Source of the DNA: an uncultured Gammaproteobacteria bacterium
Lineage (GTDB): Bacteria > Patescibacteriota > Patescibacteriia > Magasanikbacterales > JBBTQS01
Assembly: GCA_964627525.1 (NCBI GenBank)
Contig: CAZVIA010000001.1
Span: 72,384 to 136,383, forward strand
Length of the DNA stretch: 64,000 nt
Direction: 5' to 3'
Shown here: one piece after another, positions 1,002 to 61,676 of the stretch
How positions within the stretch are numbered: the stretch's first letter is position 1
Layout of the letters: every line of letters begins with the position of its first letter
The notes under the pieces: generated by a model
The model's input: only the letters and a program-made list of their open reading frames with translations
Told to the model about the DNA's origin: nothing
Database searches by the model: none
Position numbers and translations under genes: made by a program

Positions 1002-2324
1002 ATGTTAAAAAAAAATATCCAATCACCTTCGCAAAGGTTTGTTGTGGCTTGTTTAGTGTTGTTAATTTTTTTTGGAGTAAAAGTTTACATACAAGAGCAA
1101 ATTTTGGCAAAAAATCATCCGCGATCAAGACAAATAGATTTTCAAGCGCAAGTTGTGCGTGAAGTTTTTGATAAAAATAATTCTCAAGAGTTGGTTGTGC
1201 GTTCAGAAGAAGGTTTGGTTCAGGTGCGCATTCCAAAATATCCAAGTTTTAAATACGGCGACATTATAAATATAAGATGTACAAGATTTTTTCCAGATGC
1301 ATTAGATAAAGATGGTGCACATTATGGTCGTTATTTGCGAATGCAGGGGATTAATTGGGTTTGTAAAAATTCAGAAGTTGAGTGGGTGGGTTATAAAAAA
1401 ATTCTGTCTTTGCGATATTATGTAATTTTTGTGCGTAAAAAAATTGCACAAACAGTTGAAAATATTTGGCCAGAACCACACGCATCTTTTATTGCTGGGA
1501 TTTTGTATGGCGAGCGTAAAGGAATGTCCAAAGATTTAAAAGATAAATTCGCCATAACAGGATTAACACACATCATGGCAGTGTCTGGATATAATGTCAC
1601 AATTGTTGCAAATATTATTTTGGCTTTTTTGGCAGCAATCGGAGTGCGCAGAAAACGTGCATTTGGTTTTGTTTTAGTTGGAGTTGCATTTTTTGTAGTG
1701 CTGGTTGGTGGAAGCGCATCTGCAGTACGTGCTGGGATTATGGGAGTAGTTGCTTTGTTAGGTAGGACTTTGGGTCGTGGCAATAATGCTGCAGCTCTTA
1801 TAATTTCAGCTTCAATAATTATGACATTGCACAATGAAATGGTTTTGCTTTATGATGTGGGATTTCATTTATCAGTACTCGCAACAATTGGTTTAATTTA
1901 TTTTTCGCCAATTATTGAAAAATTTTTGCGATGGGTCCCGGGGATTTTTGGGTTGCGCGAAATAATTTCAACAAGTGTGAGTGCAATAATTTTTACCGCG
2001 CCATTAATCAGTTTTGTTTTTGGAAAAGTCACAGTTGTTTCTTTAATCACAAATGTTTTGGTGTTACCAGTGATTCCAATTTTAATGTTACTGTCCGGAG
2101 TCGCGATGTTGTTTGGTTTATTTTTAAAACCAGCTGGAGTTTTATTAGGTGTGGTAGCCTGGTTGTTAAGTTCGTATGTTTTATTGATTGTAAAAATATT
2201 TTCCGAGTTAAGTTTTGCATCTCTAAGTTTTGCAATGCCGTTGTGGGTCGTAATTATTAGTTATTTAATTTTATGGATTTTAATTTTTCAAAAAAACAAA
2301 TTATTGGATTGGTTGGAATCTTGA
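1002..2324 (+). CDS. comEC: ComEC/Rec2 DNA-uptake channel, N-terminal and competence domain (multi-TM)
   Basis: ITGLTHIMAVSGYNV competence-domain motif and many TM helices. The ORF ends inside an A7 tract; the MBL domain continues in another frame. Confidence 0.8.
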   Translation: MLKKNIQSPSQRFVVACLVLLIFFGVKVYIQEQILAKNHPRSRQIDFQAQVVREVFDKNNSQELVVRSEEGLVQVRIPKYPSFKYGDIINIRCTRFFPDALDKDGAHYGRYLRMQGINWVCKNSEVEWVGYKKILSLRYYVIFVRKKIAQTVENIWPEPHASFIAGILYGERKGMSKDLKDKFAITGLTHIMAVSGYNVTIVANIILAFLAAIGVRRKRAFGFVLVGVAFFVVLVGGSASAVRAGIMGVVALLGRTLGRGNNAAALIISASIIMTLHNEMVLLYDVGFHLSVLATIGLIYFSPIIEKFLRWVPGIFGLREIISTSVSAIIFTAPLISFVFGKVTVVSLITNVLVLPVIPILMLLSGVAMLFGLFLKPAGVLLGVVAWLLSSYVLLIVKIFSELSFASLSFAMPLWVVIISYLILWILIFQKNKLLDWLES

Positions 2325-3168: not shown

Positions 3169-4674
3169 ATGAGTTATCGCACATACAAATTGAGCGCACT
3201 TTTTAGTGTATTTTTGTGTTTATTATTTTTAATGCCTTTTGCTACGCCAGCAAATGCAAATACAGGAGTTGGTTTTGTGCCAAGTTCTGGAGTTTGGTTT
3301 TCGCAAGATGTTTTTTATGAAAACGAAACTGTAAAATTATATACAGTTGTTGTGAACAATACATACAAATCACTTTCTGGAATAATTGGTTTTTATGATA
3401 ATGATCAATTAATTGTGGAGACAGTTTTTTCAAATATAAGGTTTGAAGAAGCAAAACAAATTTCAGCAACTTGGGAGCCACAATCTGGTGATCATGATTT
3501 AGTTGCAAAATTTACTCAAGTGACTGGAACTAATGATGATGGTTCAAAAGAAAATTTTGACGGTGCGACTTTTACTGGAGGTGCTTCTGAAGTTAAAACT
3601 TCTCGTTTTGTAGATAAAGATACTGATGGCGATAAGGTCGGAAATGAAGTTGATGATGACGATGACAACGATGGTTTGAGTGATGCAGAAGAAGAAACTT
3701 TAGGTTCTGATCCTGAAAAAACTGATACTGATGGTGATAGTTTGGATGATAAAAAAGAAGTTGATCGTGGTACTGATCCAACTCGTGCTGATACTGATGG
3801 TGATGGTGTTGATGATGATAAGGATGTGTTCCCAACAAACAAAGGAGAGTGGAATGATATTGATGGTGACGGGCAAGGGGATAATTCAGATTCAGATGAT
3901 GATAATGATGGTTTGTCTGATGATGATGAAAAAAATTATGGTTCAGATCCATATAAAAAAGATACTGATGCAGATGGTTTAAATGATAAAGAAGAAATTG
4001 ATTTTAAATCAGATCCAACTAAACCTGATACTGATGCAGATGGTTTAACAGATTATGAAGAAAGAGATTTTGGAACTGATCCTGAAAAAACTGATACTGA
4101 TGGTGATGGTTTAAGTGATTTTACTGAAAAAGAATTAGGTACTGATGCAACAATGGTTGATACTGATGAAGATACTTTGGCTGATGGTGATGAAGTTAAA
4201 GCTGGTACAAGTCCTTTGTTTCAAGATTCAGATGCTGATGAGGTAAATGATAATGTCGATGCTTTTCCAATGAATAAAGCTGAAACTGCTGACACAGATG
4301 AAGATGGTGTTGGAGATAATGCTGATGAAGATGATGATAATGATGGTTTAAATGATGTGCAGGAATTGGAGATGGGGTTAGATCCTTTGAAAGCAGATAC
4401 TGATGATGATACTTTGAGCGACAAAGATGAGATTGAAGTTACTTTGACAGATCCTTTGAAAGCAGATACTGATGAAGATGGTGTTAGTGATGGGGTGGAA
4501 GTTCAGGAGGGTACTGATCCAAATTCAGCTGATTCAGTTCCAGATTTGCCAGATGAAGAAGGTGAAGGTGGGTCAATGTCAATGCAAAAAGTTTTGACTT
4601 TTCTAGCAGTTGTTTCTTCTTTGTGTGTGTTATTTTTTGCAGGACTATATGTGTTCAAGCGCAAAGAATCTTAG
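3169..4674 (+). CDS. cell-surface acidic Ca-binding repeat protein (thrombospondin type-3-like DxDxDGxxD repeats) with C-terminal TM anchor
   Basis: Signal peptide MSYRTYKLSALFSVFLCLLFLMPFATPANA. About 20 DTDGDGLSD / DTDADGLND repeats. C-terminal hydrophobic anchor VLTFLAVVSSLCVLFFAGLYVFKRK. Confidence 0.7.
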   Translation: MSYRTYKLSALFSVFLCLLFLMPFATPANANTGVGFVPSSGVWFSQDVFYENETVKLYTVVVNNTYKSLSGIIGFYDNDQLIVETVFSNIRFEEAKQISATWEPQSGDHDLVAKFTQVTGTNDDGSKENFDGATFTGGASEVKTSRFVDKDTDGDKVGNEVDDDDDNDGLSDAEEETLGSDPEKTDTDGDSLDDKKEVDRGTDPTRADTDGDGVDDDKDVFPTNKGEWNDIDGDGQGDNSDSDDDNDGLSDDDEKNYGSDPYKKDTDADGLNDKEEIDFKSDPTKPDTDADGLTDYEERDFGTDPEKTDTDGDGLSDFTEKELGTDATMVDTDEDTLADGDEVKAGTSPLFQDSDADEVNDNVDAFPMNKAETADTDEDGVGDNADEDDDNDGLNDVQELEMGLDPLKADTDDDTLSDKDEIEVTLTDPLKADTDEDGVSDGVEVQEGTDPNSADSVPDLPDEEGEGGSMSMQKVLTFLAVVSSLCVLFFAGLYVFKRKES

Positions 4675-5446
4675 TGTAAAACTTAGTTTAAATTTTGGTG
4701 CATTTTTAATAATAATTTTGTTTGGTGTTTTTGCTTTTGCAAATAATGTGAGTGCTGAACAAGATTTTGTGATACAAGATAGTGATAATGATGGGTTGTC
4801 AGATTATGATGAACAAAATTTATATTATACAAACCCTCTGAATCCAGACACTGATGGTGATGGTTATTTTGATGGTCAGGAAATAAAATTTGGTTATTCG
4901 CCGCACATGGGTGATGGTGTTCGCTTGTCTAAAAATGATTTTGATAAAGATGGGATGAATGATTATTTAGAAATTGCGTTTCATACCAATTTAATAAATC
5001 CAGACACTGATGGTGATGGTTATTTTGATGGTTTGGAGTTGAGGTATAGTTATGATCCGCGGATTTTTGTTCCTAAGAAAATTAAAAAACGAATTATTGT
5101 GGATTTATCTGAACAAATGTTGCGTTATTATTGGGATGACATAAAAATGGGGGAGTTTTTAATTTCTTCTGGGCGTGCTACAGTACCAACTCCTTTGGGA
5201 AAGTTTTCTATTAATACAAAATTACCTGTGCACACATATTCAGGTGCAAATTATTATTACCCAAATACAAAATGGAATATGCGTTTTCATGGAACTCCGC
5301 CGTATTCATATTATATTCATGGAGCTTTTTGGCATGATAATTTTGGTACACCAATGAGTGGTGGTTGTATAAATGTTTCTTATGATAAAATGGAAGGGTT
5401 GTATCATTGGGCAGAAATTGGGACTGAAGTTGAAATTATAGAATAA
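4649..5446 (+). CDS. L,D-transpeptidase (YkuD domain) with N-terminal TSP3-like Ca-binding repeats
   Basis: Signal peptide, then NPDTDGDGYFDG repeats twice. C-terminal HG(T)...SGGCIN catalytic motif typical of YkuD L,D-transpeptidases. Confidence 0.75.
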   Translation: MCSSAKNLSVKLSLNFGAFLIIILFGVFAFANNVSAEQDFVIQDSDNDGLSDYDEQNLYYTNPLNPDTDGDGYFDGQEIKFGYSPHMGDGVRLSKNDFDKDGMNDYLEIAFHTNLINPDTDGDGYFDGLELRYSYDPRIFVPKKIKKRIIVDLSEQMLRYYWDDIKMGEFLISSGRATVPTPLGKFSINTKLPVHTYSGANYYYPNTKWNMRFHGTPPYSYYIHGAFWHDNFGTPMSGGCINVSYDKMEGLYHWAEIGTEVEIIE

Positions 5447-7934: not shown

Positions 7935-10226
7935 TTATTCCTCCAAATGTCCCAGCACAAATTGTTTAACTTGTGTGCCATCTAAAATAAAACCCTGGCC
8001 TTTCACTTCGTCTATTGCAAAGTCCAATAAGTTTTCAGAATTATCAAACAAATATTGCACTTTTAATTTTCCAGTTTCTTTTTCAAAAACAACCACACGC
8101 TTATTCAGAGGATCAAAAACATACAACCAATCAGATTCAAATTTTGTCCAAACAGAAGTAGGGGATTCAAGAACAGGATCTGCACTACTTAATTTAAATT
8201 CTTGCAATTCGCCACGACTAAATGATTTTACATCACCATTGCCCATTAAAACCCAAGCCAAGCCATCAATACTCACACTAACTGCTTCAGATAAATCAAT
8301 TGCACCTTTAATCCAAGTAGTGCCAGAATCAAATCCTTCTTGATGCCTACCATGTTTGAAAATTTGATTTTGTTCAGGTACTAAAGAATACAAACGATCA
8401 TTATAAACCACGAGATCTTTAATTAAACCACCACCAGGAATATCAACTTGCATCAACTTATCTTCACCAGCGTATTTCCATTGCACGGCATTTTCATTTC
8501 CAACAAAGAAAATATGATCTTCATCAGTTGCAACACCAATATATTTTGCATCACTAAAACCACTAGAACTAGATTCAATATTTTCTTCAAATTTTGTAAC
8601 TTGAGTACCTCGCTCCAAAGCAACTAATTTTTTCAAATCATCAGACACAACAACTAACCCAGTAGAAACAATTAAATTATTTGCTTCATTCAAACCTTGG
8701 TCCACAGCATCTAACAAAATGGTAACTCCTGGATGTTCAGCATGTCTTAATTTTTCACGCATTTCATCAACTTTTTTTGTAAGACGTTCAGTTGTATTTT
8801 TTTGTTCACGAGATTTTGTTGGCAAAGCATTAAGTTTTTCAACAACATCCATAATCATTTCGCGCGCATGATCTTCTTCATTAAAAATCAAATTAGATTC
8901 TGCAGCGCTTAATTTAGATTCAATGCTAGTAATTTGCGCTTGATAAGCAGCTTCTTTGATTTGAGTTGTTTTGCGGTGTTTTAATACACCAATACTAATA
9001 ATAAAAATCACAATCAAAACAAGTCCAACAATAAATGCTATTTTACTAATGGTTGATAGTTTTTCAAACCACTTGCGCGCGCGTTCATAATTATCTGTAG
9101 TGATTTTTTTCCAATGATCGGTAAATTCTTTTCTACGATCACCTTGGTTTGTAATAAGAAAATATAAGGTTTGCAAAACTGTGACACAAGCAATTGCAGT
9201 CCATTTAATTCCACGCCAAATTAGATTTGCTCCAAGTAATCCATATTTTGTTCCGTGTCGGGCACTTGTATGCAAAATACCTTTTACTTGTTTGCGCCTA
9301 TCAGTTTGTTTTGGTTTTTCGTCATGATTATTTTCTCTATTGTCATCTTCATGTTCGCGACTACTTTTTTTACCAGCTTTTTCTTCAAACCGTGATTTAA
9401 GTTTTCCAAACAAACTAGGAGCAAGAATTTCTTCAGTATCTTGTTGTGTTTTTAAAAACTCTGTCAAAGATTCGTGTGGTTTTTTTCCGTCAGATTTATT
9501 TTTTGAAGAAACAAGTTCTTCGTTATCATAATCATGTTTTAATCTTTCAATTAAAATTCCACCAAAAGAAAATCCATTGTCAACATCTTCCAAAATATTT
9601 TGGAAATGCTTAATAGATTTTTTTGGCAACTTGTTTGCAAGAATTTGTTCGATTTGTTTTTTAGAAAAACCATCATCCACATGAGGTGAACAATATAGCA
9701 CGCGATCGTTTTCACCAATTCCTCCAGACACAATGTTTGAAAACATTTGTGAGTCATTATCTTGCTCACGATTTTCTTCAACTATGTCAATTGTTTTGTA
9801 AGAGCCATGCTTGTCTTGATATGCAACACAACCAATTGGATCGCCACGCATTGCAAAACACAAATCTTCTTCATTTACATAACCAAGAATAATGTGGATT
9901 TCTTCTTCCTCAATTTGCATTGCTCGCAACAAAGTAGAGCTACGTTTATTAATCCGTTCTAATAATTTTTCAAAATGAGACCCAATGTCTCGACCTCTTA
10001 ATTCTTCATCGTAAAAACCAGTTTCCAGTTCTTCAATCCATTTATTGATTGTATCCACTGTTTTTACTGTGGCTTGGTTGGCTTCAGCAACCATAAATAG
10101 GTAGCCGCGCCGATATTCCTCTTCATTTGCAGGTTCTGTTATGTGTAAAATTACCTGCGAACTGTCTGCATCGCGGCCTTCTACGAAAAATTCGTGTATA
10201 TTGATTTTTGAGTTTAATGCTCTCAT
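7935..10226 (-). CDS. large hypothetical membrane protein: N-terminal cytoplasmic domain, one TM, coiled coil, C-terminal beta-rich extracytoplasmic domain
   Basis: TM helix IAFIVGLVLIVIFIISIGVL at mid-protein. No confident family motif. Confidence 0.5.
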   Translation of the reverse strand: MRALNSKINIHEFFVEGRDADSSQVILHITEPANEEEYRRGYLFMVAEANQATVKTVDTINKWIEELETGFYDEELRGRDIGSHFEKLLERINKRSSTLLRAMQIEEEEIHIILGYVNEEDLCFAMRGDPIGCVAYQDKHGSYKTIDIVEENREQDNDSQMFSNIVSGGIGENDRVLYCSPHVDDGFSKKQIEQILANKLPKKSIKHFQNILEDVDNGFSFGGILIERLKHDYDNEELVSSKNKSDGKKPHESLTEFLKTQQDTEEILAPSLFGKLKSRFEEKAGKKSSREHEDDNRENNHDEKPKQTDRRKQVKGILHTSARHGTKYGLLGANLIWRGIKWTAIACVTVLQTLYFLITNQGDRRKEFTDHWKKITTDNYERARKWFEKLSTISKIAFIVGLVLIVIFIISIGVLKHRKTTQIKEAAYQAQITSIESKLSAAESNLIFNEEDHAREMIMDVVEKLNALPTKSREQKNTTERLTKKVDEMREKLRHAEHPGVTILLDAVDQGLNEANNLIVSTGLVVVSDDLKKLVALERGTQVTKFEENIESSSSGFSDAKYIGVATDEDHIFFVGNENAVQWKYAGEDKLMQVDIPGGGLIKDLVVYNDRLYSLVPEQNQIFKHGRHQEGFDSGTTWIKGAIDLSEAVSVSIDGLAWVLMGNGDVKSFSRGELQEFKLSSADPVLESPTSVWTKFESDWLYVFDPLNKRVVVFEKETGKLKVQYLFDNSENLLDFAIDEVKGQGFILDGTQVKQFVLGHLEE

Positions 10227-10296: not shown

Positions 10297-10884
10297 ATGC
10301 TTGAACACTTATTTGGTTCAAAGACACGGGTACGCTTGCTGCGTCTTTTTTTTAGAAATTCAGACCAGCCGTTTTATGTGCGTGAAATGTCCAGACAGAT
10401 AAATAGTCAAATAAATGCGGTTCGTAGAGAACTTCAAAATCTGCAAAAAGCAGGTGTAATTAAAATTATTGAAAACCCTCCAGAAGATTCAGTTACAGAA
10501 ACCAACGCATCAAATCGTTGCACTTGGTATCAGCTTGATAAAGAATATTCTTTGCATGAGGAGATCAAAGCTTTGGTTATGAAGTCTCGTGTTTTAGATG
10601 AACAAGCTTTGGCAGATGAGATTGTAAAAGTTGCAAACAATGTCCACACACTTTTGTTCACAGGATGTTTTGTTGGAACTGAAGAAGCTCCGGTTGATTT
10701 GTTGGTAGTTGGTTCAGTGGACAAAACAAAATTTAATCGCTTGTTAAAAAAATACGAAAAAGAAATTGGTTCAGTAATTCGTTACACAATTTTGTCTACA
10801 AAAGAGTTTCAAGAGCGTCAACAAGTGGTTGATAGGTTTTTATATTCAATTTATCAAAATCCACATTTAATTGTCACTCCATAA
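10297..10884 (+). CDS. winged-helix DNA-binding protein with a C-terminal nucleotidyltransferase-like domain
   Basis: N-terminal LFGSKTRVRLLRLF...VREMSRQI wHTH pattern. C-terminal GCFVGTEEAPVDLLVVGS resembles a minimal nucleotidyltransferase fold. Confidence 0.4.
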   Translation: MLEHLFGSKTRVRLLRLFFRNSDQPFYVREMSRQINSQINAVRRELQNLQKAGVIKIIENPPEDSVTETNASNRCTWYQLDKEYSLHEEIKALVMKSRVLDEQALADEIVKVANNVHTLLFTGCFVGTEEAPVDLLVVGSVDKTKFNRLLKKYEKEIGSVIRYTILSTKEFQERQQVVDRFLYSIYQNPHLIVTP

Positions 10885-17172: not shown

Positions 17173-17301
17173 CTTTCCCTCCCTTTTTTTCCCTCTTCTT
17201 AAACACCCGAGCAAAATCACCCGAGAGATTATGCTAGCATTTGTACCTAATTTTGTCAAGACTGTTGTCAGGCTGGTTTTTCTGCTAAAGTATGTGCAGT
17301 T

Positions 17302-25294: not shown

Positions 25295-25388
25295 AACTTA
25301 AAAAACATATTATTTGTTCCTATCCCGTGCTAATTCTAGCACTCGACCCTCAACGGGTAAGTGTCACAAATAATATGTTTTTTAAGTT
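25295..25388. mobile_element. 94-bp MITE-like element or integration scar: perfect 23-bp terminal inverted repeats around a 48-nt structured core
   Basis: aacttaaaaaacatattatttgt (25295-25317) and acaaataatatgttttttaagtt (25366-25388) are exact reverse complements. The core contains nested hairpins cccgt..acggg and gtgcta..tagcac. Sits 3 nt after tRNA-Tyr. Confidence 0.45.
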
Positions 25389-25503
25389 AATAAATTAATT
25401 TACAACAATTTTACTAACTAAAACTTGTTTTTTTTACATTAAGTGTATACTTCGTATCAACTGGCGTGAATGGACACGTCAAAAAAGCAAAGGAGGGTTA
25501 GCC

Positions 25504-26049
25504 ATGAAAAAGGCAACCTACTTGTTGTTGGCAGGGCTAGCGCTCGTTGCGCTGGTCTGGCCAATCTTGGCAACAGCATCTCAACCGTCAGACGACGCGG
25601 GAGAGCAGTTGTGCCAGGTTTGGCCGGGGATTTCGTTCTGCATGTCAGCACCCGACGAGGTCGTGGTTGCTGGCAGTGATCTGTTGTTCACGTTCGATGA
25701 TCAGAGCGCGCCGCAGATCCTGATGCAGGACAAGAACGGGTTGTTCATGGTGACGGGGCTGATCCAGGTTCCGTATGACCAGTTGGCAGTGCTGATGAGC
25801 CAGAAACTCGTCGGACTGCTGATCTGGGAAGATGGGCAAGGTCGTATTCTCATGCAGGCGCCCGACGGGCTCTTCGTGTGGTGCGACAAAGCAGAAGGCA
25901 CGTGCTTTATCATGGAGAAGAAGCCGGCGGAGAGCGGCGACTTCATCATGCAGAGCAGCTTGATCATCGGACCGTGTACTGGGAATCTCATTCTGGTGAA
26001 CAAGGCTTGGGGTGGTCCGATCGTGCCAATCAACATCGTGTTCTGTTAG
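25504..26049 (+). CDS. secreted hypothetical protein, horizontally acquired (about 57% GC against a 33% GC genome)
   Basis: Signal peptide MKKATYLLLAGLALVALVWPILATA. SD aaaggaggg precedes the ATG. Strongly GC-rich codon usage unlike neighbours. Confidence 0.7.
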   Translation: MKKATYLLLAGLALVALVWPILATASQPSDDAGEQLCQVWPGISFCMSAPDEVVVAGSDLLFTFDDQSAPQILMQDKNGLFMVTGLIQVPYDQLAVLMSQKLVGLLIWEDGQGRILMQAPDGLFVWCDKAEGTCFIMEKKPAESGDFIMQSSLIIGPCTGNLILVNKAWGGPIVPINIVFC

Positions 26050-26075
26050 TACTGCACAGACAGTGCGAAGCAGAA

Positions 26076-26126
26076 AAACACGCGAGAGCGTCTAGGTAAC
26101 ACTAGGCGCTTCTCTGTTTTTTTAAA
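26076..26126 (+). terminator. intrinsic terminator
   Basis: GC hairpin cgcgagagcg...cgcttctctg followed by T7. Confidence 0.5.
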
Positions 26127-26194
26127 TTAAATTTGATACATGGTTTAAAAAGTTATAAAGTAAGAATGTAAGAAATTATTACTTATATAAAAAT

Positions 26195-26440
26195 ATGAAT
26201 GTGATTTTAAAAGCTACTACAAAAGGGCAAATAACTTTGCCTGCAAAATGGAGAAGGTCTTTTAATACAGATCAGTATCTTGTAACAAGTAAGGGTGGAA
26301 TGCTTGAGGTGCGCCCTGTTGATCTTAAATCAGCTATAAATACAAAAGATGAATATACTGTTTTTGATGCAATCCGAGATAATAAAGGTAAAGGTATAAA
26401 AGCAAAAGATCTTGTAAAAGTTTTGAAAAAAATGACTTAA
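26195..26440 (+). CDS. AbrB/MazE/SpoVT-family swapped-hairpin DNA-binding protein (antitoxin-like), AT-rich
   Basis: KGQITLPAKWRRSFN is typical of AbrB/MazE N-termini. 81 aa. No cognate toxin adjacent. Confidence 0.5.
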   Translation: MNVILKATTKGQITLPAKWRRSFNTDQYLVTSKGGMLEVRPVDLKSAINTKDEYTVFDAIRDNKGKGIKAKDLVKVLKKMT

Positions 26441-26608
26441 GCTTTTATGGATCAAATACAAAAATTGTTTAAGATAGTATAAAATTAAGAAATGAGCAGA
26501 TTTATAAATAATATTTTTTAAATTAAAAAAGACCTCACTTCGTGTGGGTCTTTTTTGTTGTTTAAGTTTCTGACTCATCTTGAGTCAGTCGGCCGAAATG
26601 GCCTGTCC

Positions 26609-27226
26609 TTAGTGGATCGCCTCGTTGTCGTCCATGCCAGCTCCTGTCACGTTGCAGTGCACCCGAATGGCGCTCCGCGGAATCGTGACACAGAACTCAC
26701 CGTGTTCTGAGGAGGTCGAAACCTCTTCAGTGGTGGTCAACACAATGTGCCTTCCCACCTCACAGTTCGCCTTGACAAGGACTTGCTCGATCCACTCCAC
26801 CAGGTTGTCCGTGGCAGTACGCTCACCCAAGTCCATTGCTTCGACCTCGGGCATGCACTGTTCGAACACCACGATCGTCGGGATGCGCACCGTCTTGGTG
26901 AATATCACGCCGCCACTCTTCTTCGAGCTTGGGGTGGGCTTGGATTCCTTGGTCGTCAGCGTCTTGCCAGCAACCCAGGTTTCCTCCTTGTCTTGGATCT
27001 CCACCTCGCTGCCGGTTTGGCGAGCGAAGCGCAGAACCTCCAGGAGGGTGGGATCGCCGCGCCCGACGTCCACGGTCTCCTCGCCAGCGACCGGAGTCGC
27101 TGTCCGAGTCGGACCGCCTGCAGGTTGAGCTGTCGCCGTCGTGGCACAGCCTGGGTTGAGGGCGATAATAGCTATGACCACCGCAAGGGCGATCGAAGAA
27201 AAAATCAGTTGCACTATTGCCTTCAT
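26609..27226 (-). CDS. hypothetical lipoprotein, horizontally acquired (about 58% GC)
   Basis: Start MKAIVQLIFSSIALAVVIAIIALNPGCATT (signal plus lipobox-like NPGC). It is preceded by SD caaggaga and by a perfect TTGACA-N17-TATAGT promoter. Confidence 0.65.
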   Translation of the reverse strand: MKAIVQLIFSSIALAVVIAIIALNPGCATTATAQPAGGPTRTATPVAGEETVDVGRGDPTLLEVLRFARQTGSEVEIQDKEETWVAGKTLTTKESKPTPSSKKSGGVIFTKTVRIPTIVVFEQCMPEVEAMDLGERTATDNLVEWIEQVLVKANCEVGRHIVLTTTEEVSTSSEHGEFCVTIPRSAIRVHCNVTGAGMDDNEAIH

Positions 27227-27350
27227 TGAAGGGTGTCTCCTTGTGGTTTGATTTACGGTCGTTTGTGCAGTTTTAGAGAACCCTACTGATGATCTGTTCT
27301 GCGTCAGCTCATCATGCAGTACTCTCCAAAAAGTACATATTAAACAGATA

Positions 27351-27379
27351 ACTATAGCATATTTTAGCGATTTTGTCAA
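27351..27379 (-). promoter_or_regulatory. sigma70 promoter TTGACA-N17-TATAGT driving the GC-rich lipoprotein gene
   Basis: Reverse complement of 27351-27379 reads ttgaca aaatcgctaaaatatgc tatagt. Near-identical (26/29) to the promoter at 60899-60927. Confidence 0.6.
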
Positions 27380-27456
27380 CCCTCACTGGCTTTGCCAGCT
27401 CGGGTTGTCAACTGCGTCTTTAATTTTTGCCTAAAATAAGCTAAAATCATAACACA

Positions 27457-49465: not shown

Positions 49466-49493
49466 TTAATTTGTTTTAAAAAAATTTTTATAA

Positions 49494-49534
49494 AAAAGTC
49501 GACCCCAGCTGATGTTAGTCAACTGGGGTCTTTT
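49494..49534. terminator. bidirectional intrinsic terminator
   Basis: gaccccag ctgatgttagtcaa ctggggtc flanked by an A-run and a T-run. Confidence 0.6.
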
Positions 49535-49535
49535 G

Positions 49536-49662
49536 TCACGCTCAGGTGTTGAACCTGAAACTTACGTTCGCGGAACCTGGGTTCGCGTAACAGTAGAACT
49601 GCGTGTTCGTGACGTTGGGTTGGGACAAAGGTCGATTCTCTAGCCAAGTTGTATTATGGCGG
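49536..49662 (-). ncRNA. GC-rich structured segment in the rnhA 3' region (candidate sRNA or structured 3' UTR)
   Basis: About 55% GC. Hairpins gtcacg..cgtgac and cgcggaac..gttcgcg. A T-arm-like tcagg-ttcaaca-cctga on the minus strand. It lies between the rnhA stop and the terminator. Could not be folded as a tRNA. Confidence 0.25.
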
Positions 49663-49703
49663 GTTTGAAGAGTTTTGTCAAATTTTTTTGTTGAGATTTA
49701 TTT

Positions 49704-57587: not shown

Positions 57588-58943
57588 ATGAAAAAACTTT
57601 ACATTGCTGCGATGATTTTTGTTGCGATTTTTGCTGTTTGTATTAGGTTCAATAATTTACAAAATTATTCAACAGTTTGGGCAGATGATGGGGGAGCGCA
57701 CATGCAATATGTTGAAATAGTTTTGCGTGAACATGTTTTGCCAACAATGGATCAAACTTATTTAGCTTGGCACGAACCACTTTATTATGTTGTAAATGCA
57801 GTTTGGATTCAGTGGGGCGAGTGGTTAGGTTTCCAAGGATTAAATTTGTGGGAAACTTTAAATTTTGTTATCGGGTTATTGTTTTTAGTGGTAGTTGGTT
57901 GGTTTACTTATGTTTTTTCAAAAGACAAATGGTTGGCTTTGTTAAATGTTTTTTTGTTCACGGTTTTTTTTCAAAGTGTAAAACTTAGTGCGTTTGTAAA
58001 TAATGAATTATTAGCCCAAACTTTAATTGTCTTGCTAGTTGGGTTATTTATTTTTTGGAAATTATTTGAGCTGGGCAAAATTAAACAAGTTGTGTTGTGG
58101 TCTGTAATTTTGGGTTTGGCTTTGTTAGCAAAATTAACAGTTGTAATTGTTTTTATTGCAGTGGGAATTTTGTGGCTAGGTTATGCTTTGATTAAGAAAA
58201 AACCACACACAATAAAATATTTAATTTTGTGCGCAGTAATTGTTGGTGCAATAAATACACCTTGGTTAATTTATAAACAGCAAAATTTTGGTCATGCATT
58301 TTCCACAAATATTTATGAACAAAACACAAAGCAATCTTTATTAACAAGTGATGCTTGGGATTATATTTTTGAAATTGATTTAGCTTTTATAAAAACTTAT
58401 CCATATTGGCACGGAAAAATTATTCCAGTATCTTATTCTTTTGCAGGAATTTTTATTGCAGACAGTTTTTCAGATTATTATAATTTATTTACAAATGCAG
58501 ATGCTGTTGAAAATTTAGCAGATGAACAAAAACAAATTGTTGGAAATGGTCGTGCAGTGAATTTAGAAAATTGGAATAACATGTTGTGGATGAATAGGTT
58601 GGGATTACTTTTTGTGATGATTTGGCTGGCGGGGTTGTTAGTATTATTTTGGCGATTGATTTTTGCACAAAAGTTTAAGCAAAAAAATAATTGGTATGAA
58701 TATTTTGTGATTTTGATTTTAATAGGTGGTTGGTTGGCGCTTTTGTATAATAATTTAAGACATCCGTATTTAGAGCGTGGAGTTTTAAAAACTTCATTTA
58801 TATTATTTACTTTCCCGATTTGGACGACTTTAGCTTATCAAGGTTGGCACAAAATTATTAAGAAAAAAACATTATTGTTTAGCTTGATGCTTGTGTTAAT
58901 TGTGATATATGCTGTAATTGCATGGCCAGTGATTTTTGTATGA
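57588..58943 (+). CDS. polytopic membrane protein, probable GT-C glycosyltransferase (ArnT/PMT-like)
   Basis: About 12 TM helices and an early periplasmic loop with DDGG. Overlaps (ATGA) the downstream polyprenol-phosphate glycosyltransferase, which is a typical pairing. Confidence 0.4.
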   Translation: MKKLYIAAMIFVAIFAVCIRFNNLQNYSTVWADDGGAHMQYVEIVLREHVLPTMDQTYLAWHEPLYYVVNAVWIQWGEWLGFQGLNLWETLNFVIGLLFLVVVGWFTYVFSKDKWLALLNVFLFTVFFQSVKLSAFVNNELLAQTLIVLLVGLFIFWKLFELGKIKQVVLWSVILGLALLAKLTVVIVFIAVGILWLGYALIKKKPHTIKYLILCAVIVGAINTPWLIYKQQNFGHAFSTNIYEQNTKQSLLTSDAWDYIFEIDLAFIKTYPYWHGKIIPVSYSFAGIFIADSFSDYYNLFTNADAVENLADEQKQIVGNGRAVNLENWNNMLWMNRLGLLFVMIWLAGLLVLFWRLIFAQKFKQKNNWYEYFVILILIGGWLALLYNNLRHPYLERGVLKTSFILFTFPIWTTLAYQGWHKIIKKKTLLFSLMLVLIVIYAVIAWPVIFV

Positions 58944-59653
58944 AGACTTTAGTTATAATTCCAACTTATAATGAAAAAGAAAACATTGAAAAATTAATCA
59001 ATGAGGTTTTGAAATTTAATGTTAATGTTTTGGTTGTAGATGATAATTCTCCAGATGGTACGGGCGAAATTGTTAAAAATATGTTAAGGCAAAATTCAGC
59101 ACAAAGGTCTGGGCAAAATGTAAATTTAATTAAGCGTGCACAAAAGTTAGGTTTGGGAAGTGCATATCAAGCTGGTTTTAAATGGGGGATTGAAAATAAT
59201 TTTGATTTGTTTTTTCAAATGGATGCAGATTTTTCTCATGATCCAAAAGATTTGCAAAAAATGATTCAGGAAATTCAAAACAGTGCAGAAGTTGTAATTG
59301 GTTCTCGCAGAATTCTTGGTGGAAAAATTATTGGATGGAGTTGGTTTAGACATTTTTCAAGTTGGGGAGCCATGAGTTTTTCAAGATTAATTTTAAGATT
59401 AAAAACAAAAGATGTCACAGCTGGTTATCGTGCGTTTACAAAAAATGCTTTAGCAAAGATTAATTGGCAAAATGTTAAATCAAATGGTTATGCTTTTCAA
59501 GAGGAGATAATTTATTTGTGTGAGCGTGCTGGATTGAAAATTAAAGAAGTTCCGGTTGTATTTGTGGATCGTAAAGTAGGGAAGTCAAAGTTGGGGATTA
59601 AAGAGATTTTTAATTTTTTTAAAACTTTGTTTAGGTTGTTTTTTTCAAAATAA
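58940..59653 (+). CDS. polyprenol-phosphate sugar synthase, GT2 (DPM1/ArnC/GtrB-like)
   Basis: IIPTYNEKENI...VVDDNSPDGTGEIV and DADFSHDP. Confidence 0.8.
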   Translation: MKTLVIIPTYNEKENIEKLINEVLKFNVNVLVVDDNSPDGTGEIVKNMLRQNSAQRSGQNVNLIKRAQKLGLGSAYQAGFKWGIENNFDLFFQMDADFSHDPKDLQKMIQEIQNSAEVVIGSRRILGGKIIGWSWFRHFSSWGAMSFSRLILRLKTKDVTAGYRAFTKNALAKINWQNVKSNGYAFQEEIIYLCERAGLKIKEVPVVFVDRKVGKSKLGIKEIFNFFKTLFRLFFSK

Positions 59654-59676
59654 CATCATTCAAAATAATTTTTAAT

Positions 59677-59738
59677 AAAAAAAGACCCCCCGCACTATGT
59701 TACAATTCGTGCGTAAGGGCCTTGTTTTGGGGGGTCTT
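59677..59738. terminator. strong intrinsic terminator (terminates minus-strand ncRNA-2; also lies 3' of the plus-strand GT2 gene)
   Basis: A7, then gaagacccccc ...38-nt loop... ggggggtcttc. On the minus strand it reads stem then U7. Confidence 0.6.
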
Positions 59739-60209
59739 CAGACGCCGCCATGTCCCCCCGGTTCAGTACTCCAGGATTAGAAGGACTTGCATCTCTTCTG
59801 CCTTCCTTTGGCTTTTGAGGTCAGCCACTCCAGAGAGCCATCGCGTTTTTTTTGCGGTTGTTACAAAGGTGCGATAACTGTTTTTGACAATTTCGTATCG
59901 TGCTGTCGTCAGCAGTCAACTTAGTTTCTTAAAACTCGCTTTGTTTATTCTGCTGTTTTTACACTGCAGGTTGTTTTGCGAGTTACACATGCTTTCATGC
60001 TTTCATAGTCCTTGGAGGTTCAGATTAACATCCTCCCCAAGCTACACCGCCTTGTGTGTTTAGGCGCTGAGGTGCTTCCACCTAACTGATTCAGTCAGGC
60101 TTTAGTAGCCGTGCGAGCAGAACCATTTCTCGCGTACCTCCTTTGCTGGCTTTTGTACGCATTACCAGCGTTTTACTGCTCGTGGTTCTTTTTGTACAAG
60201 TAAGCAGTA
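59677..60209 (-). ncRNA. candidate large structured noncoding RNA, unit 2 (about 530 nt, about 50% GC), family unknown
   Basis: Defined by a perfect promoter (60216-60244) and terminator (59677-59738). No ORF longer than 24 codons in the transcribed sense. Many GC-rich hairpins. The 5' end folds immediately (tactgct..agcagta). Confidence 0.5.
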
Positions 60210-60215
60210 AATGGT

Positions 60216-60244
60216 ATTGTAACACATGTGCGAGATTCTGTCAA
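60216..60244 (-). promoter_or_regulatory. sigma70 promoter TTGACA-N17-TACAAT (minus strand) for ncRNA unit 2
   Basis: Reverse complement reads ttgaca gaatctcgcacatgtgt tacaat. Confidence 0.6.
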
Positions 60245-60284
60245 GCTCGTGCCTACGGCACTCGCTTGTCAACTGCGTCGCTAC

Positions 60285-60320
60285 GCAAAAAAGCAAGTAA
60301 AACTTGCTTTTTTAGTCTCC
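60285..60320. terminator. bidirectional hairpin terminator between the two ncRNA units
   Basis: aaaaaa gcaagt aaaa cttgc tttttt. Confidence 0.45.
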
Positions 60321-60350
60321 ACTCCTTGTTGTCAAACCCTTAGTTTAAAC

Positions 60351-60892
60351 AAAAAAAGAAGACCCGTACCGTAATGGTTCGTGTCTTCTACAGGAGGATC
60401 AAGTTTTGACAGAAACTATGGTAGTTAACCTCCAGAGCAGGTGTTCCAATTCTGCTCCTGCTAATGATGGGGTGCCGAAGCCCACCTTTGCTTCCACTAC
60501 CAGGAGGGTTCCTATTATATGGCCCAACCCATCCAACCTTCTGCTTTGTCGCATCAAGTTGGTCCTTACTCCACACTTGTCATCGTGTGTAAGGCATAAG
60601 AGCCGTTTTTTAGGGTATTTTAGTTCTCAGGCGCGACCCCGAGATCTTGGTACCTCTCTAAACCTCACCAACTATGGGACGCGACTCCCTTTCTGCTGCA
60701 CTGTTGGCGTACAGGTTCTAGCGCTTAGAATTGGATCCAGGCCTTTCAGCGGGACCCAGTTCAATGCGTTCTGGTGCGTAGTTAGAGCACCTCTTTATTA
60801 TCTCCTTTTTGCCGTTATTCGTTTGTCGCCCTTTGAGCACACAGACCCTCTTCAAAAGTTGTCAGAGTCTTGGCTTGCAAAAGACCAAACGA
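60351..60892 (-). ncRNA. candidate large structured noncoding RNA, unit 1 (about 540 nt, about 50% GC), family unknown
   Basis: Defined by a perfect promoter (60899-60927) and an intrinsic terminator (hairpin 60358-60388 plus U7 on the minus strand). The only sense ORF has a GTG start, 62 codons and a low-complexity product. The antisense 181-aa ORF has a non-protein-like composition. Confidence 0.5.
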
Positions 60893-60898
60893 AGACAT

Positions 60899-60927
60899 AC
60901 TATAGCATGTTTGAGAGATTTTGTCAA
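60899..60927 (-). promoter_or_regulatory. sigma70 promoter TTGACA-N17-TATAGT (minus strand) for ncRNA unit 1
   Basis: Reverse complement reads ttgaca aaatctctcaaacatgc tatagt. 26/29 identical to the promoter at 27351-27379. Confidence 0.6.
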
Positions 60928-60977
60928 GTCTTTGGTTTCGTGGTAATCTAATATTGTGTAATTTAAGAGAAATTTAT

Positions 60978-61676
60978 ATGAAAAAAATTATTATTTTGGC
61001 GACAATTGTTTTGTTAGGATTAGGATGTTCAACTCCAAATCCTGCTCCTGTAGACAGCACTGCAGATAAACCTGCTTCTGCTGAATCTGATCAGCCGGTT
61101 GAAAATCAAGAAAAACCAACTACTGAAGCGCCAGCACCTGCAATAGATACACCACCACTTCCACAAGATGCACCAATTTACACTCGCAAACAAGGTGAGT
61201 CTAATGATACCTTTGTACATAGAGTTGCAATGACTCATTACAATAATATGCTTGGAATGAGAATGCATGATGTAATTGAGGGTATGATGGCTGGTGTGGA
61301 TAAGTCTTTGTTGGCTTTTTATTTTCCAGAAGAAGTTTCAGCAACAAAAAGTTATAAAGGTTTTGTGTTAGTTCCATTAAATGTTCAGGGCGAACATGCT
61401 TTTTTACCAATGCCAGATATGGATATGGGATTTTACACTGGAATTGAATCTGTGTTTTTCGCAAATGCTGATGATGATTCTGCAAAAGAAATTGTTGTGT
61501 TAATGTCTCAAATGTCTGGTGCTGGGCAAATAGCAGGAGAATCAATGATGTATGAGTCGGCTGTGTTTGATTGGACTGGTGAAAAGTTTAAATTTAAACA
61601 AGATGTAAGTAAATTAATCGGAAACTTGTACCCAGCTTCAGAAGTTAAAAAACAATTAAAAAGTCTCGGGTTTTAA
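60978..61676 (+). CDS. lipoprotein, hypothetical
   Basis: MKKIIILATIVLLGLGCSTP lipobox and a Pro/Ala-rich linker. Confidence 0.6.
   Translation: MKKIIILATIVLLGLGCSTPNPAPVDSTADKPASAESDQPVENQEKPTTEAPAPAIDTPPLPQDAPIYTRKQGESNDTFVHRVAMTHYNNMLGMRMHDVIEGMMAGVDKSLLAFYFPEEVSATKSYKGFVLVPLNVQGEHAFLPMPDMDMGFYTGIESVFFANADDDSAKEIVVLMSQMSGAGQIAGESMMYESAVFDWTGEKFKFKQDVSKLIGNLYPASEVKKQLKSLGF

Follow-up and report, generated by a model that had tools for sequence, protein, structure and literature searches.

Noncoding RNAs and Autonomous Cassettes Related to the Locus

To our knowledge, bacterial noncoding RNAs (ncRNAs) longer than ~400 nt are rare. Nearly all of the well-studied long ones are elaborate in function: ribosomal RNAs, RNase P, tmRNA, group I/II introns, OLE, ROOL and GOLLD. 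CPR/Patescibacteria are obligate episymbionts with minimal genomes, and the RNA repertoire of this group is, as far as we know, essentially unexplored. Candidates for orphan ncRNAs are sought by the GC-IGR/DIMPL approach among the long GC-rich intergenic regions of AT-rich bacterial genomes (PMC6429828, PMC8723152, PMC11109978). Phage morons are independent transcription units of deviant GC, which carry their own promoter and terminator (PMC3594210).

The two units described here lie in a window of 64,000 nucleotides (the whole stretch of DNA analysed) from an uncultured Patescibacteria lineage. They resemble GC-IGR/DIMPL candidates, since their spacer is the longest and the most GC-rich in the window (other spacers have GC 0.33) and each unit, bounded by a promoter and a terminator of its own, lacks an ORF and belongs to no known family. 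However, GC-IGR/DIMPL accepts motifs only after homologs and covariation are found, whereas the units are single-sequence candidates. Like OLE, ROOL, GOLLD, raiA and HEARO, they exceed 500 nt, stand alone and contain many predicted hairpins, including those with cUUCGg and GAAA loops. Unlike these RNAs, they have no CM match at E ≤ 10 and no marker context (oapA, IscB, phage/tRNA).

The similarity to phage morons consists in a sigma-70-type promoter, a factor-independent terminator and GC unlike that of the neighbours, as well as in insertion between conserved genes, with other cargo at this site in the nearest relative. In contrast to morons, the units are located outside a prophage, their cargo is noncoding and their promoters are of the host type. 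Abundant RNAs that sequester proteins and are poorly conserved in sequence (6S RNA, the CsrB/RsmZ-type RNAs) would share with the units strong promoters, stable ends, a rapid change of sequence between genera and action as RNA. Nevertheless, the 6S model gives no match and the MFE fold lacks the rod-with-bubble shape, while the count of GGA motifs is not above the composition expectation, unlike in CsrB/RsmZ-type RNAs.

Intergenic Region and Genuineness of the Sequence

The spacer accounts for 24% of the total intergenic DNA of the window, and the runner-up spacer is 2.7 times shorter; coding density is 91%. GC is 0.43–0.51 over 59700–60900 and 0.29–0.36 in the flanks, which agrees with the contrast noted in an earlier reading made from the sequence alone (the sequence-only reading). 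Its further claim that such contrast is otherwise confined to tRNAs and the foreign island does not hold, as positions 795–960 and 49492–49646 show it too. The neighbourhood includes lepA, murJ, a beta-CASP RNase gene, PMT/GT2, lipoprotein genes and mraZ-rsmH; no phage genes are seen in it. A streamlined AT-biased genome would be expected to retain a spacer of this length and GC only if it is recent or selected.

The 1401 nt spanning the region are 100% identical in contigs of four different samples (two from JGI, one each from ENA and Logan); thus, the region is not an artefact. Two contigs considered as strain variants (L007 and L008) were rejected, since scaffold Ns are their sole differences. 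The features are as follows.

59654–60977, intergenic region with the units on the minus strand, 1324 nt, GC 0.45
60899–60927, minus strand, unit 1 promoter, TTGACA-N17-TATAGT with a TG extended -10, score 11/12
60350–60892, minus strand, unit 1 RNA predicted from sequence, ~542 nt, GC 0.48, A-rich
60820–60891, minus strand, unit 1 5'-terminal irregular hairpin, from about +2, -24.3 kcal/mol
60350–60389, minus strand, unit 1 intrinsic terminator, GAAGAC...GUCUUC hairpin (60389–60357) followed by U7, -14.1 kcal/mol, z -3.35
60287–60313, extra hairpin between the units, bidirectional terminator, perfect 12-bp stem, A/T-flanked, -12.8 kcal/mol
60245–60279, minus strand, unit 2 upstream module, GACGCAGTTGACAA and a hairpin of 5 bp with a 3-nt loop
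60216–60244, minus strand, unit 2 promoter, TTGACA-N17-TACAAT with a TG extended -10, score 11/12
59677–60209, minus strand, unit 2 RNA predicted from sequence, ~533 nt, GC 0.47, 34% A
60171–60211, minus strand, unit 2 5'-terminal hairpin UACUGCU...AGCAGUA, -10.0 kcal/mol, z -4.3
60091–60144, minus strand, Shine–Dalgarno (SD) sequence AAAGGAGGU, 9-nt spacer and 11-codon ORF MVLLARLLKPD inside unit 2
59677–59738, minus strand, unit 2 intrinsic terminator, hairpin 59738–59682 followed by U7, -23.2 kcal/mol

Anatomy of the Transcription Units

Each unit is preceded by a sigma-70-type promoter and ends in an intrinsic terminator of the same strand, as is characteristic of an independent bacterial transcription unit. 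The two separate minus-strand units proposed earlier are supported, and their parts are confirmed: the promoters at 60927–60899 and 60244–60216, a hairpin at the predicted +1 of both RNAs, and terminator hairpins with U7. The transcription start of unit 1 was inferred at ~7 nt past the -10 element, and its 5' hairpin region contains helices with pair probability >0.9.

The window contains 6 copies of the extended motif TTGACA-N14-TGnTAnnnT, whereas 0.13 are expected, which makes it a genuine native promoter type; the remaining copies drive protein genes. The unit 1 promoter is identical at 26 of 29 positions to that of a GC-rich 205-aa lipoprotein gene (27379–27351). The same lipoprotein cassette (27405–27418 and its hairpin) has the upstream module in common with unit 2. 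Only these two exact copies of GACGCAGTTGACAA are found in the window, and the stems of the module hairpins differ on both sides (GTGCC/GGCAC and CTGGC/GCCAG).

At the base of the unit 2 terminator are 10 perfect GC-rich base pairs, AAGACCCCCC/GGGGGGUCUU, which enclose an inner stem. Both terminators escaped a simple terminator scan, one stem being imperfect and the other having a long loop. The hairpin between the units at 60313–60287, AAAAAAGCAAGU-UUU-ACUUGCUUUUUU, is 100% complementary and represents a third terminator, which had been overlooked in the sequence-only reading.

Comparison of the Units and Search for Homologs

Only the promoters (74% identical) and the terminators (77%) are alike between the units. 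Paralogy was considered and rejected: the bodies are unlike, with a local alignment z of -0.8 and no shared k-mers. The mountain-plot correlation is 0.45 against a null of 0.38 ± 0.22. No common sequence, motif or fold architecture was found between the two bodies or with the analogous units, nor any hint of a functional core that they share. A target search by RNAduplex over 62 translation-initiation regions, and of unit versus unit, gave values not above those of shuffles.

Homologs of the RNA bodies were found neither in the loci of relatives nor in phage/plasmid records, viral contigs, metagenome pattern matches or the called ORFs of a set of 5.8 billion proteins. GT2 homologs include one relative at 66% identity (contigs L009–L012, which vary by 2–3 SNPs, all outside the units); others are at ≤59% and have different contexts. 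Scanning GTDB genomes with beta-CASP gave 9 loci, all at ≤51%. Comparison of both units with all the GT2- and beta-CASP-anchored loci by blastn and nhmmer returned nothing, and blastn in distant mode against phages and plasmids was likewise without a match. In a metagenome collection without source contigs, the pattern GACGCAGTTGACAA-N18-30-TTGACA had 36 chance matches (EF-Tu genes and others). Scans of viral contigs with the promoter, two body motifs and a 17-mer common to a 181-aa island gene also produced chance matches only. The promoter style is generic, since an unrelated phage contig contains it frequently.

The Same Slot in Relatives and the Cassette Class

In the nearest relative (GT2 66% identical), the corresponding place is occupied, with orientation unchanged, by a pentapeptide-repeat gene and by three noncoding units (~181, 119 and 411 nt), all with promoters and terminators built as in the window. 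This noncoding content is unrelated to units 1 and 2. One such noncoding unit is present in each of two further contigs (L017 and L018), and bona fide Magasanikbacteria lack the slot. A small RNA family suggested by two 9-mers shared between a unit of the nearest relative and that of L018 (L009_B/L018u) was rejected, as nhmmer gave no support.

The units are part of a broader group of moron-like cassettes, autonomous and GC-deviant, of which some encode ORFan proteins and others are noncoding. Coding cassettes with the same promoter module are located at 26609–27226 and 25504–26049 of the window and at 8936–9619 and 5661–6221 of contig L009 of the nearest relative. GC-richness is thus a trait of the whole deviant class, including its coding members, and is not specific to structured RNA.

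Proposed Explanation

The units can best be explained, though only tentatively, as two separate genes for stable, abundant ncRNAs of ~542 and 533 nt. Both are regarded as candidate ncRNA genes, new and lineage-specific, for which the case is credible but unproven. Host RNA polymerase would transcribe each unit from the strongest native promoter type of the genome (TTGACA with TGnTAnnnT). In Firmicutes and E. coli, 5' stem-loops guard transcripts against 5'-end-dependent decay by RNase J, Y and E, and by analogy the 5'-terminal stem-loop may shield each RNA from these enzymes. The terminator hairpin at each 3' end could also stop 3' exonucleases.

Expression level, stability, function at the RNA level and mode of action are deduced here from sequence. 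The RNAs probably act in trans as RNAs, a protein-binding or scaffold role being likelier than antisense regulation, and would be lineage-specific with fast evolutionary turnover. As to origin, the units may be noncoding members of the deviant cassettes scattered through this Patescibacteria lineage. Such cassettes appear phage-moron-like, as each is under its own promoter, ends in its own terminator and has 45–60% GC in a 33% GC genome, and the other members would encode ORFan secreted proteins or lipoproteins. In favour of the two RNA genes are the native promoter motif, the terminators and 5' hairpins, the noncoding character, the retention of the spacer, the strand bias in composition and folding, the analogous units of relatives and the identity of the assemblies. 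Counted against them are the lack of homologs, the MFE z-scores, the dissimilar bodies and the negative target search; in addition, deviant GC could reflect just a very recent horizontal acquisition.

Alternative Explanations

The strongest alternative, which appears rather unlikely, is functionless foreign DNA: recently acquired GC-balanced fragments in or beside promoter/terminator cassettes, transcribed as junk or carried as neutral cargo. The composition of the units deviates in the same manner as that of the ORFan cassettes, and their lack of homologs is shared by the 205-aa cassette gene, an ORFan among 5.8 billion proteins. The bodies look random, as their base frequencies are close to uniform and they have no motif in common, and both the different content of the slot in the nearest relative and its absence from bona fide Magasanikbacteria fit such an acquisition. 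However, both fragments are framed exactly, by a full strong promoter and +1 hairpin on one side and a terminator on the other, and they are in tandem and near-equal in length. Moreover, 1.3 kb is retained in a densely coding genome, and the sequence is identical across the four samples.

Folding also exceeds that of dinucleotide shuffles. The MFE is -180 kcal/mol for unit 1 (z -3.1 to -3.9) and -159 kcal/mol for unit 2 (z -3.0 to -3.1), and folding is stronger for the sense strand than for the antisense one (z -3.1 and -3.0 versus -2.0 and -1.9 for units 1 and 2). The transcribed strand of both units is purine/A-loaded. Nevertheless, the MFE z-score was dropped as evidence of structure, because GC-rich coding sequences score equally: the GC-rich ORFan protein-coding cassettes of the same genome reach z -3.05 and -5.45. 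The abundance of GC stems emphasized in the sequence-only reading is for this reason not evidence by itself. Membership in a class of large structured RNAs would be a plausible but unproven interpretation of the units.

According to another explanation, which we regard as improbable, the units derive from GC-rich cassettes for ORFan proteins, which have decayed to pseudogenes with promoters and terminators retained. It is consistent with the coding nature of the sister cassettes that use the same promoter module, and with the perfect SD followed by ATG that remains in unit 2. However, 3-base periodicity (P3) is only 1.5 in unit 1 and 1.1 in unit 2, against 6.7–11.3 in the intact coding cassettes and 6.6–13.3 in all the real CDSs tested. 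In 180-nt windows sliding over both units, its maximum is at or below the 95th percentile of shuffles, which leaves no residual periodicity for the highly degraded foreign genes suggested earlier. A Pfam search of all reading frames of both units gave no match. Frame fragments match no protein either: a 75-aa sense frame and the 181-aa antisense ORF find in protein databases only themselves, apart from a spurious Sushi-repeat match. Cassette proteins compared with the units by tblastn give nothing. Furthermore, an age sufficient to erase periodicity should also shift GC toward 33%. Neither unit thus shows the periodicity, ORF or translated similarity of a protein-coding gene or a recent pseudogene, in accordance with the noncoding nature assumed from the start.

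It is equally improbable that the units are micro-peptide mRNAs with long structured UTRs. The SD AAAGGAGGT and the 11-codon ORF reported for unit 2 are present (60144–60091), with a 9-nt spacer before ATG. One unit of the nearest relative (L009_D) also has GGAGGA, 6 nt, ATG and a 31-codon ORF. However, no counterpart with a comparable SD and start codon was found in unit 1, the ORF of unit 2 makes up 6% of the transcript and its SD is base-paired in the MFE fold. About 10 GGA/GGAGG-like motifs per unit are expected from composition, so an SD–ATG pair could arise by chance. The longest sense ORF within unit 2 (59821–59919) starts with TTG and comprises 32 codons, not 24 as previously stated.

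The possibility that the units are highly divergent known RNAs (RNase P, tmRNA, 6S, SRP, OLE, ROOL, GOLLD, raiA, HEARO/omega RNA) is essentially refuted. In AT-rich genomes, such RNAs do form islands of high GC with strong promoters, and the Rfam scan detects none of the known large or housekeeping RNAs elsewhere in the window. However, cmscan of the whole window at gathering thresholds (4227 Rfam families) matches neither unit, and at E ≤ 10 the 1.6 kb at 59500–61100 yields only noise, e.g., blv_FSE and SNORA4. ROOL, GOLLD, OLE, HEARO and raiA are without a match at either threshold. The CM of RNase P RNA type A/B, which includes the P4 helix and the conserved core, does not recognize the units, although the Rfam RNase P model works on CPR, scoring 113 bits in another CPR contig of the same sample (L014, positive control). 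ARAGORN reports 4 tRNAs and no tmRNA for the window, and the Rfam tmRNA models have no match. For 6S and SRP RNA, no CM match was obtained and the MFE folds of both units are multibranched; a length of ~540 nt is unfit for 6S, SRP and tmRNA. The exclusion of tmRNA, RNase P, SRP and rRNA, originally made by eye, is therefore supported by Rfam cmscan and ARAGORN.

A protein gene on the plus strand (181-aa ORF, 60406–60951) is likewise essentially refuted and is the least probable explanation: two gene callers annotate it (177 aa), but it finds only itself among 5.8 billion proteins, has no Pfam match or periodicity, starts with TTG and overlaps the upstream region of the next gene, and long stop-free frames arise by chance in GC-rich DNA of an AT-rich genome, which agrees with its earlier dismissal as junk.

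Possible Significance

If the two ncRNA genes are functional, a streamlined symbiont spends 2% of a 64-kb region on lineage-specific RNA genes, and both RNAs would merit study by metatranscriptomics and structure probing. A more far-reaching version, which we consider unlikely, makes them founding members of one or two new large (>500 nt) structured RNA classes restricted to an unsampled Patescibacteria lineage. According to it, the slot after the beta-CASP/GT2 operon would be a cassette site that swaps various highly expressed RNA genes, and ORFan effector genes, as “RNA morons” of CPR chromosomes. The cassette pattern, i.e., many autonomous GC-deviant cassettes with the strongest promoter of the host, ORFan or noncoding, with cargo varying at one site, may tell more than the two RNAs about how accessory functions are acquired and expressed. 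A third orphan unit of ~155 nt is present in the window at 49492–49681.

Two Transcription Units in the GT2-Lipoprotein Spacer

The spacer between the GT2 (polyprenol-phosphate mannose synthase) gene and a lipoprotein gene is, at 1324 nt, the longest in the window (the second longest is 495 nt). It accounts for 24% of the intergenic DNA of the window, which is 91% coding, and its GC content is 0.45 vs 0.33 in the other spacers. Two complete minus-strand transcription units are predicted within it (unit 1, RNA 60350-60892; unit 2, RNA 59677-60209), and they have the anatomy of real, autonomous, noncoding genes. The promoters, +1 hairpins and hairpin-U7 terminators claimed in the sequence-only reading were all located.

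Features of the spacer and its borders
58922-59653 (+), GT2 gene, left neighbour
59738-59682 (-), unit 2 terminator: Y-shaped hairpin with a perfect 10-bp GC base, -23.2 kcal/mol, then U7
+1 (-), unit 2 5' hairpin, -10.0 kcal/mol
60244-60216 (-), unit 2 promoter, TTGACA-17-TACAAT with TG
60313-60287, additional perfect bidirectional terminator hairpin between the units
60389-60357 (-), unit 1 terminator: hairpin, -14.1 kcal/mol, then U7
from about +2 (-), unit 1 5' hairpin, irregular, 72 nt, -24.3 kcal/mol
60927-60899 (-), unit 1 promoter, TTGACA-17-TATAGT with TG extended -10
60978-61676 (+), lipoprotein gene, right neighbour

The predicted RNAs are of similar length (about 542 nt for unit 1 and 533 nt for unit 2) and GC content (0.48 and 0.47), and the transcribed strand is A-rich in both. 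The promoters are 74% and the terminators 77% identical; the bodies give no alignment, and the likeness of their fold profiles is at chance level.

Contigs from four separate samples (JGI, two; ENA and Logan, one each) are 100% identical over 1401 nt of this region, so it is not an assembly artefact. Apparent strain variants differ only in scaffold Ns. The window is from a Patescibacteria (CPR) genome. The GT2 gene has its best named matches in Magasanikbacteria, Falkowbacteria and "Patescibacteria group", and the identity of the nearby beta-CASP gene to Magasanikbacteria MAGs does not exceed 51%.

Coding Potential

Three-base periodicity, taken as the ratio of the power at 1/3 to the mean power, is 1.5 in unit 1 and 1.1 in unit 2. 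Both values are lower than what shuffles reach at their 95th percentile (about 2.0), and no 180-nt sub-window of either unit exceeds 2.2. Every real CDS tested, GC-rich ones included, gives 6.6-13.3. None of the 10 longest stop-to-stop frames on both strands (41-181 aa) matches Pfam at E<=1. The 181-aa antisense ORF found only itself among 5.8 billion proteins, and for a 75-aa sense frame 1.84 billion representatives yielded its own 51-aa gene call and otherwise just a spurious Sushi-domain match inflated by repeats. On these negatives, both a plus-strand protein (the 181-aa ORF) and a frameshifted or degraded gene, the latter entertained in the sequence-only reading, are rejected. The SD with an 11-codon ORF reported for unit 2 is present; its longest sense ORF has 32 codons (TTG start) instead of the 24 given earlier.

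Known RNA Families and Folding

A cmscan of the whole window with all 4227 Rfam 15 families returned only four tRNAs and an L10 leader; on 59500-61100 at E<=10 it returned only noise, and ARAGORN found no tmRNA. The RNase P model of Rfam served as a positive control: it recovers a CPR RNase P in a 25%-GC contig of the same sample with 113 bits. By these searches, neither unit is an RNase P, tmRNA, SRP or 6S RNA, an rRNA piece, an intron, or a ROOL, GOLLD, OLE, HEARO or raiA RNA.

MFE z-scores against dinucleotide shuffles are -3.9 for unit 1 and -3.1 for unit 2 (-3.1 and -3.0 in a repeat run); the antisense strands are weaker (-2.0 and -1.9). About half of the unit 1 MFE pairs have a probability >0.9. 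Protein genes of this genome that are GC-rich ORFans reach -3.05 and -5.45, so the z-score cannot separate a structured RNA from a GC-rich cassette. The earlier interpretation stands as to noncoding nature and the lack of a known family, and a large structured RNA family is a candidate only.

Corresponding Loci in Relatives

The only relative that differs in sequence and keeps the gene order lepA-murJ-x-beta-CASP-GT2 (contigs L009-L012, GT2 66% identical) shows no similarity to either unit by blastn or nhmmer. Phage and plasmid records gave no match, and scanning viral and metagenome contigs for patterns gave chance matches only. At the homologous site just downstream of GT2, L009 carries four convergent units (8370-10110, -), each with CTTGACA-N14-TGnTAnnnT, a +1 hairpin and a terminator.

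Units in relatives
L009 (-), noncoding RNA, about 181 nt
L009 (-), noncoding RNA, about 119 nt
L009 (-), gene for a 227-aa pentapeptide-repeat protein
L009 (-), noncoding, about 411 nt, adjoining GT2
L009 5541-6221 (+), fifth cassette: 186-aa ORFan upstream of the beta-CASP gene, same promoter motif
L017 6540-6812 (-), noncoding, z -9.3
L018 5870-6127 (-), noncoding
L021 about 10360-10720 (-), strong-promoter, convergent cassette near beta-CASP with a GC-rich small membrane ORF

All three noncoding L009 units lack periodicity and have nothing in common with units 1 and 2 in sequence or k-mers. The small L009 RNAs carry the C/U-rich motifs CUCUCUCUCC (twice) and CCCUCCCCG. In each of the more distant L017 and L018, one convergent, strong-promoter orphan unit of 230-250 nt follows the beta-CASP operon; Rfam gave no match for the L017, L018 and L021 units. 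The slot is absent from bona fide Magasanikbacteria.

Promoter Type and Related Cassettes

TTGACA-N14-TGnTAnnnT occurs six times in the window (0.13 expected from shuffles); it is a strong promoter type native to the organism. Two copies drive units 1 and 2, and the other four lie upstream of protein genes; the copy at 17259 (-) precedes a good SD and a 160-aa ORF.

Cassettes and units of the same build
25504-26049 (+), 181 aa
26609-27226 (-), 205-aa lipoprotein gene, GC about 59%
49492-49681 (-), noncoding, RNA about 155 nt, promoter TTGACA-N17-CATAAT, MFE -52.8, z -4.4
L091 (left of the window) 1300-1990 (+), 187-aa ORFan, promoter TTGACA-N14-TGcTAtgtT, own terminator

The 186-aa cassette of L009 and the L021 cassette listed above are built alike. 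The promoter of the 205-aa lipoprotein, an ORFan among 5.8 billion proteins, is identical to that of unit 1 at 26 of 29 positions. Its gene also shares an upstream module with unit 2 (module at 27380-27418 and 60245-60279, respectively, both -): an exact GACGCAGTTGACAA, then a hairpin of 5 bp and a 3-nt loop just before the -35. The two copies have different bases in both arms of the stem (CTGGC/GCCAG vs GTGCC/GGCAC, respectively). The two cassettes are otherwise unrelated, and the module could be an operator or a cassette boundary. The 49492-49681 unit, a third orphan, is flanked by the RNase HI gene and a 185-aa gene; it ends in a 12-bp hairpin followed by U6 and has no Rfam match. At L091 1-400, a strong SD precedes an Arg-rich ORF of about 100 aa; this and the 1300-1990 cassette (both +), just outside the window, have a GC of 0.43-0.53.

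Possible Role

Units 1 and 2 are part of a set of self-contained expression cassettes of deviant composition that this lineage carries. Architecturally the cassettes correspond, on the chromosome, to phage morons, each of which brings its own promoter and terminator and stands out by its GC (PMC3594210); unlike morons, units 1 and 2 have host-type promoters, RNA cargo and no phage context. They are orphan members of the kind of ncRNA candidates found in GC-rich intergenic regions (PMC6429828, PMC11109978).

With the strongest native promoter, a stem-loop at the 5' end and a strong hairpin at the 3' end, both units are predicted to give abundant, long-lived transcripts. In B. subtilis and E. 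coli, 5' stem-loops guard against RNase J/E-type 5'-end-dependent decay. Function as RNAs is about evenly balanced: genome economy, maintained GC, sense-strand folding and the recurrence of such units speak for it, and non-discriminating z-scores, random-like bodies and the other content in the nearest relative speak against it. Since no antisense target stood out, a tentative best guess is that the RNAs would act by protein binding or as a scaffold.

Other GC-Rich and Repeated Elements

The island at 25300-27450, between tRNA-Tyr and tRNA-Thr, comprises two secreted-protein/lipoprotein genes of 58-60% GC (181 aa, +; 205 aa, -), both with unusually negative folding z (-5.45 and -3.05), and an AT-rich AbrB/MazE-like gene. 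A GC-rich core of about 50 nt, flanked by the arms of an 18-bp AT-rich inverted repeat (AAAAAACATATTATTTGT ... ACAAATAATATGTTTTTT), follows tRNA-Tyr directly (25300-25400, +); the whole element may be a MITE, a small RNA or an att-like site. Immediately upstream of comEC (795-960, +) lies a candidate for a structured leader or an sRNA: it is GC-rich, about 150 nt long, has a long closing helix (CCAACUGCACACCUAC.../...GGAGGUGUGUGGUUGG; MFE -87.2 kcal/mol, z -7.3) and gives no Rfam match even at E<=1. At 3658-5060 (+), Asp-rich repeats of 66 nt, or 22 aa (DTDGDG...), of the thrombospondin type-3-like calcium-binding type form long arrays inside two adjacent large ORFs.
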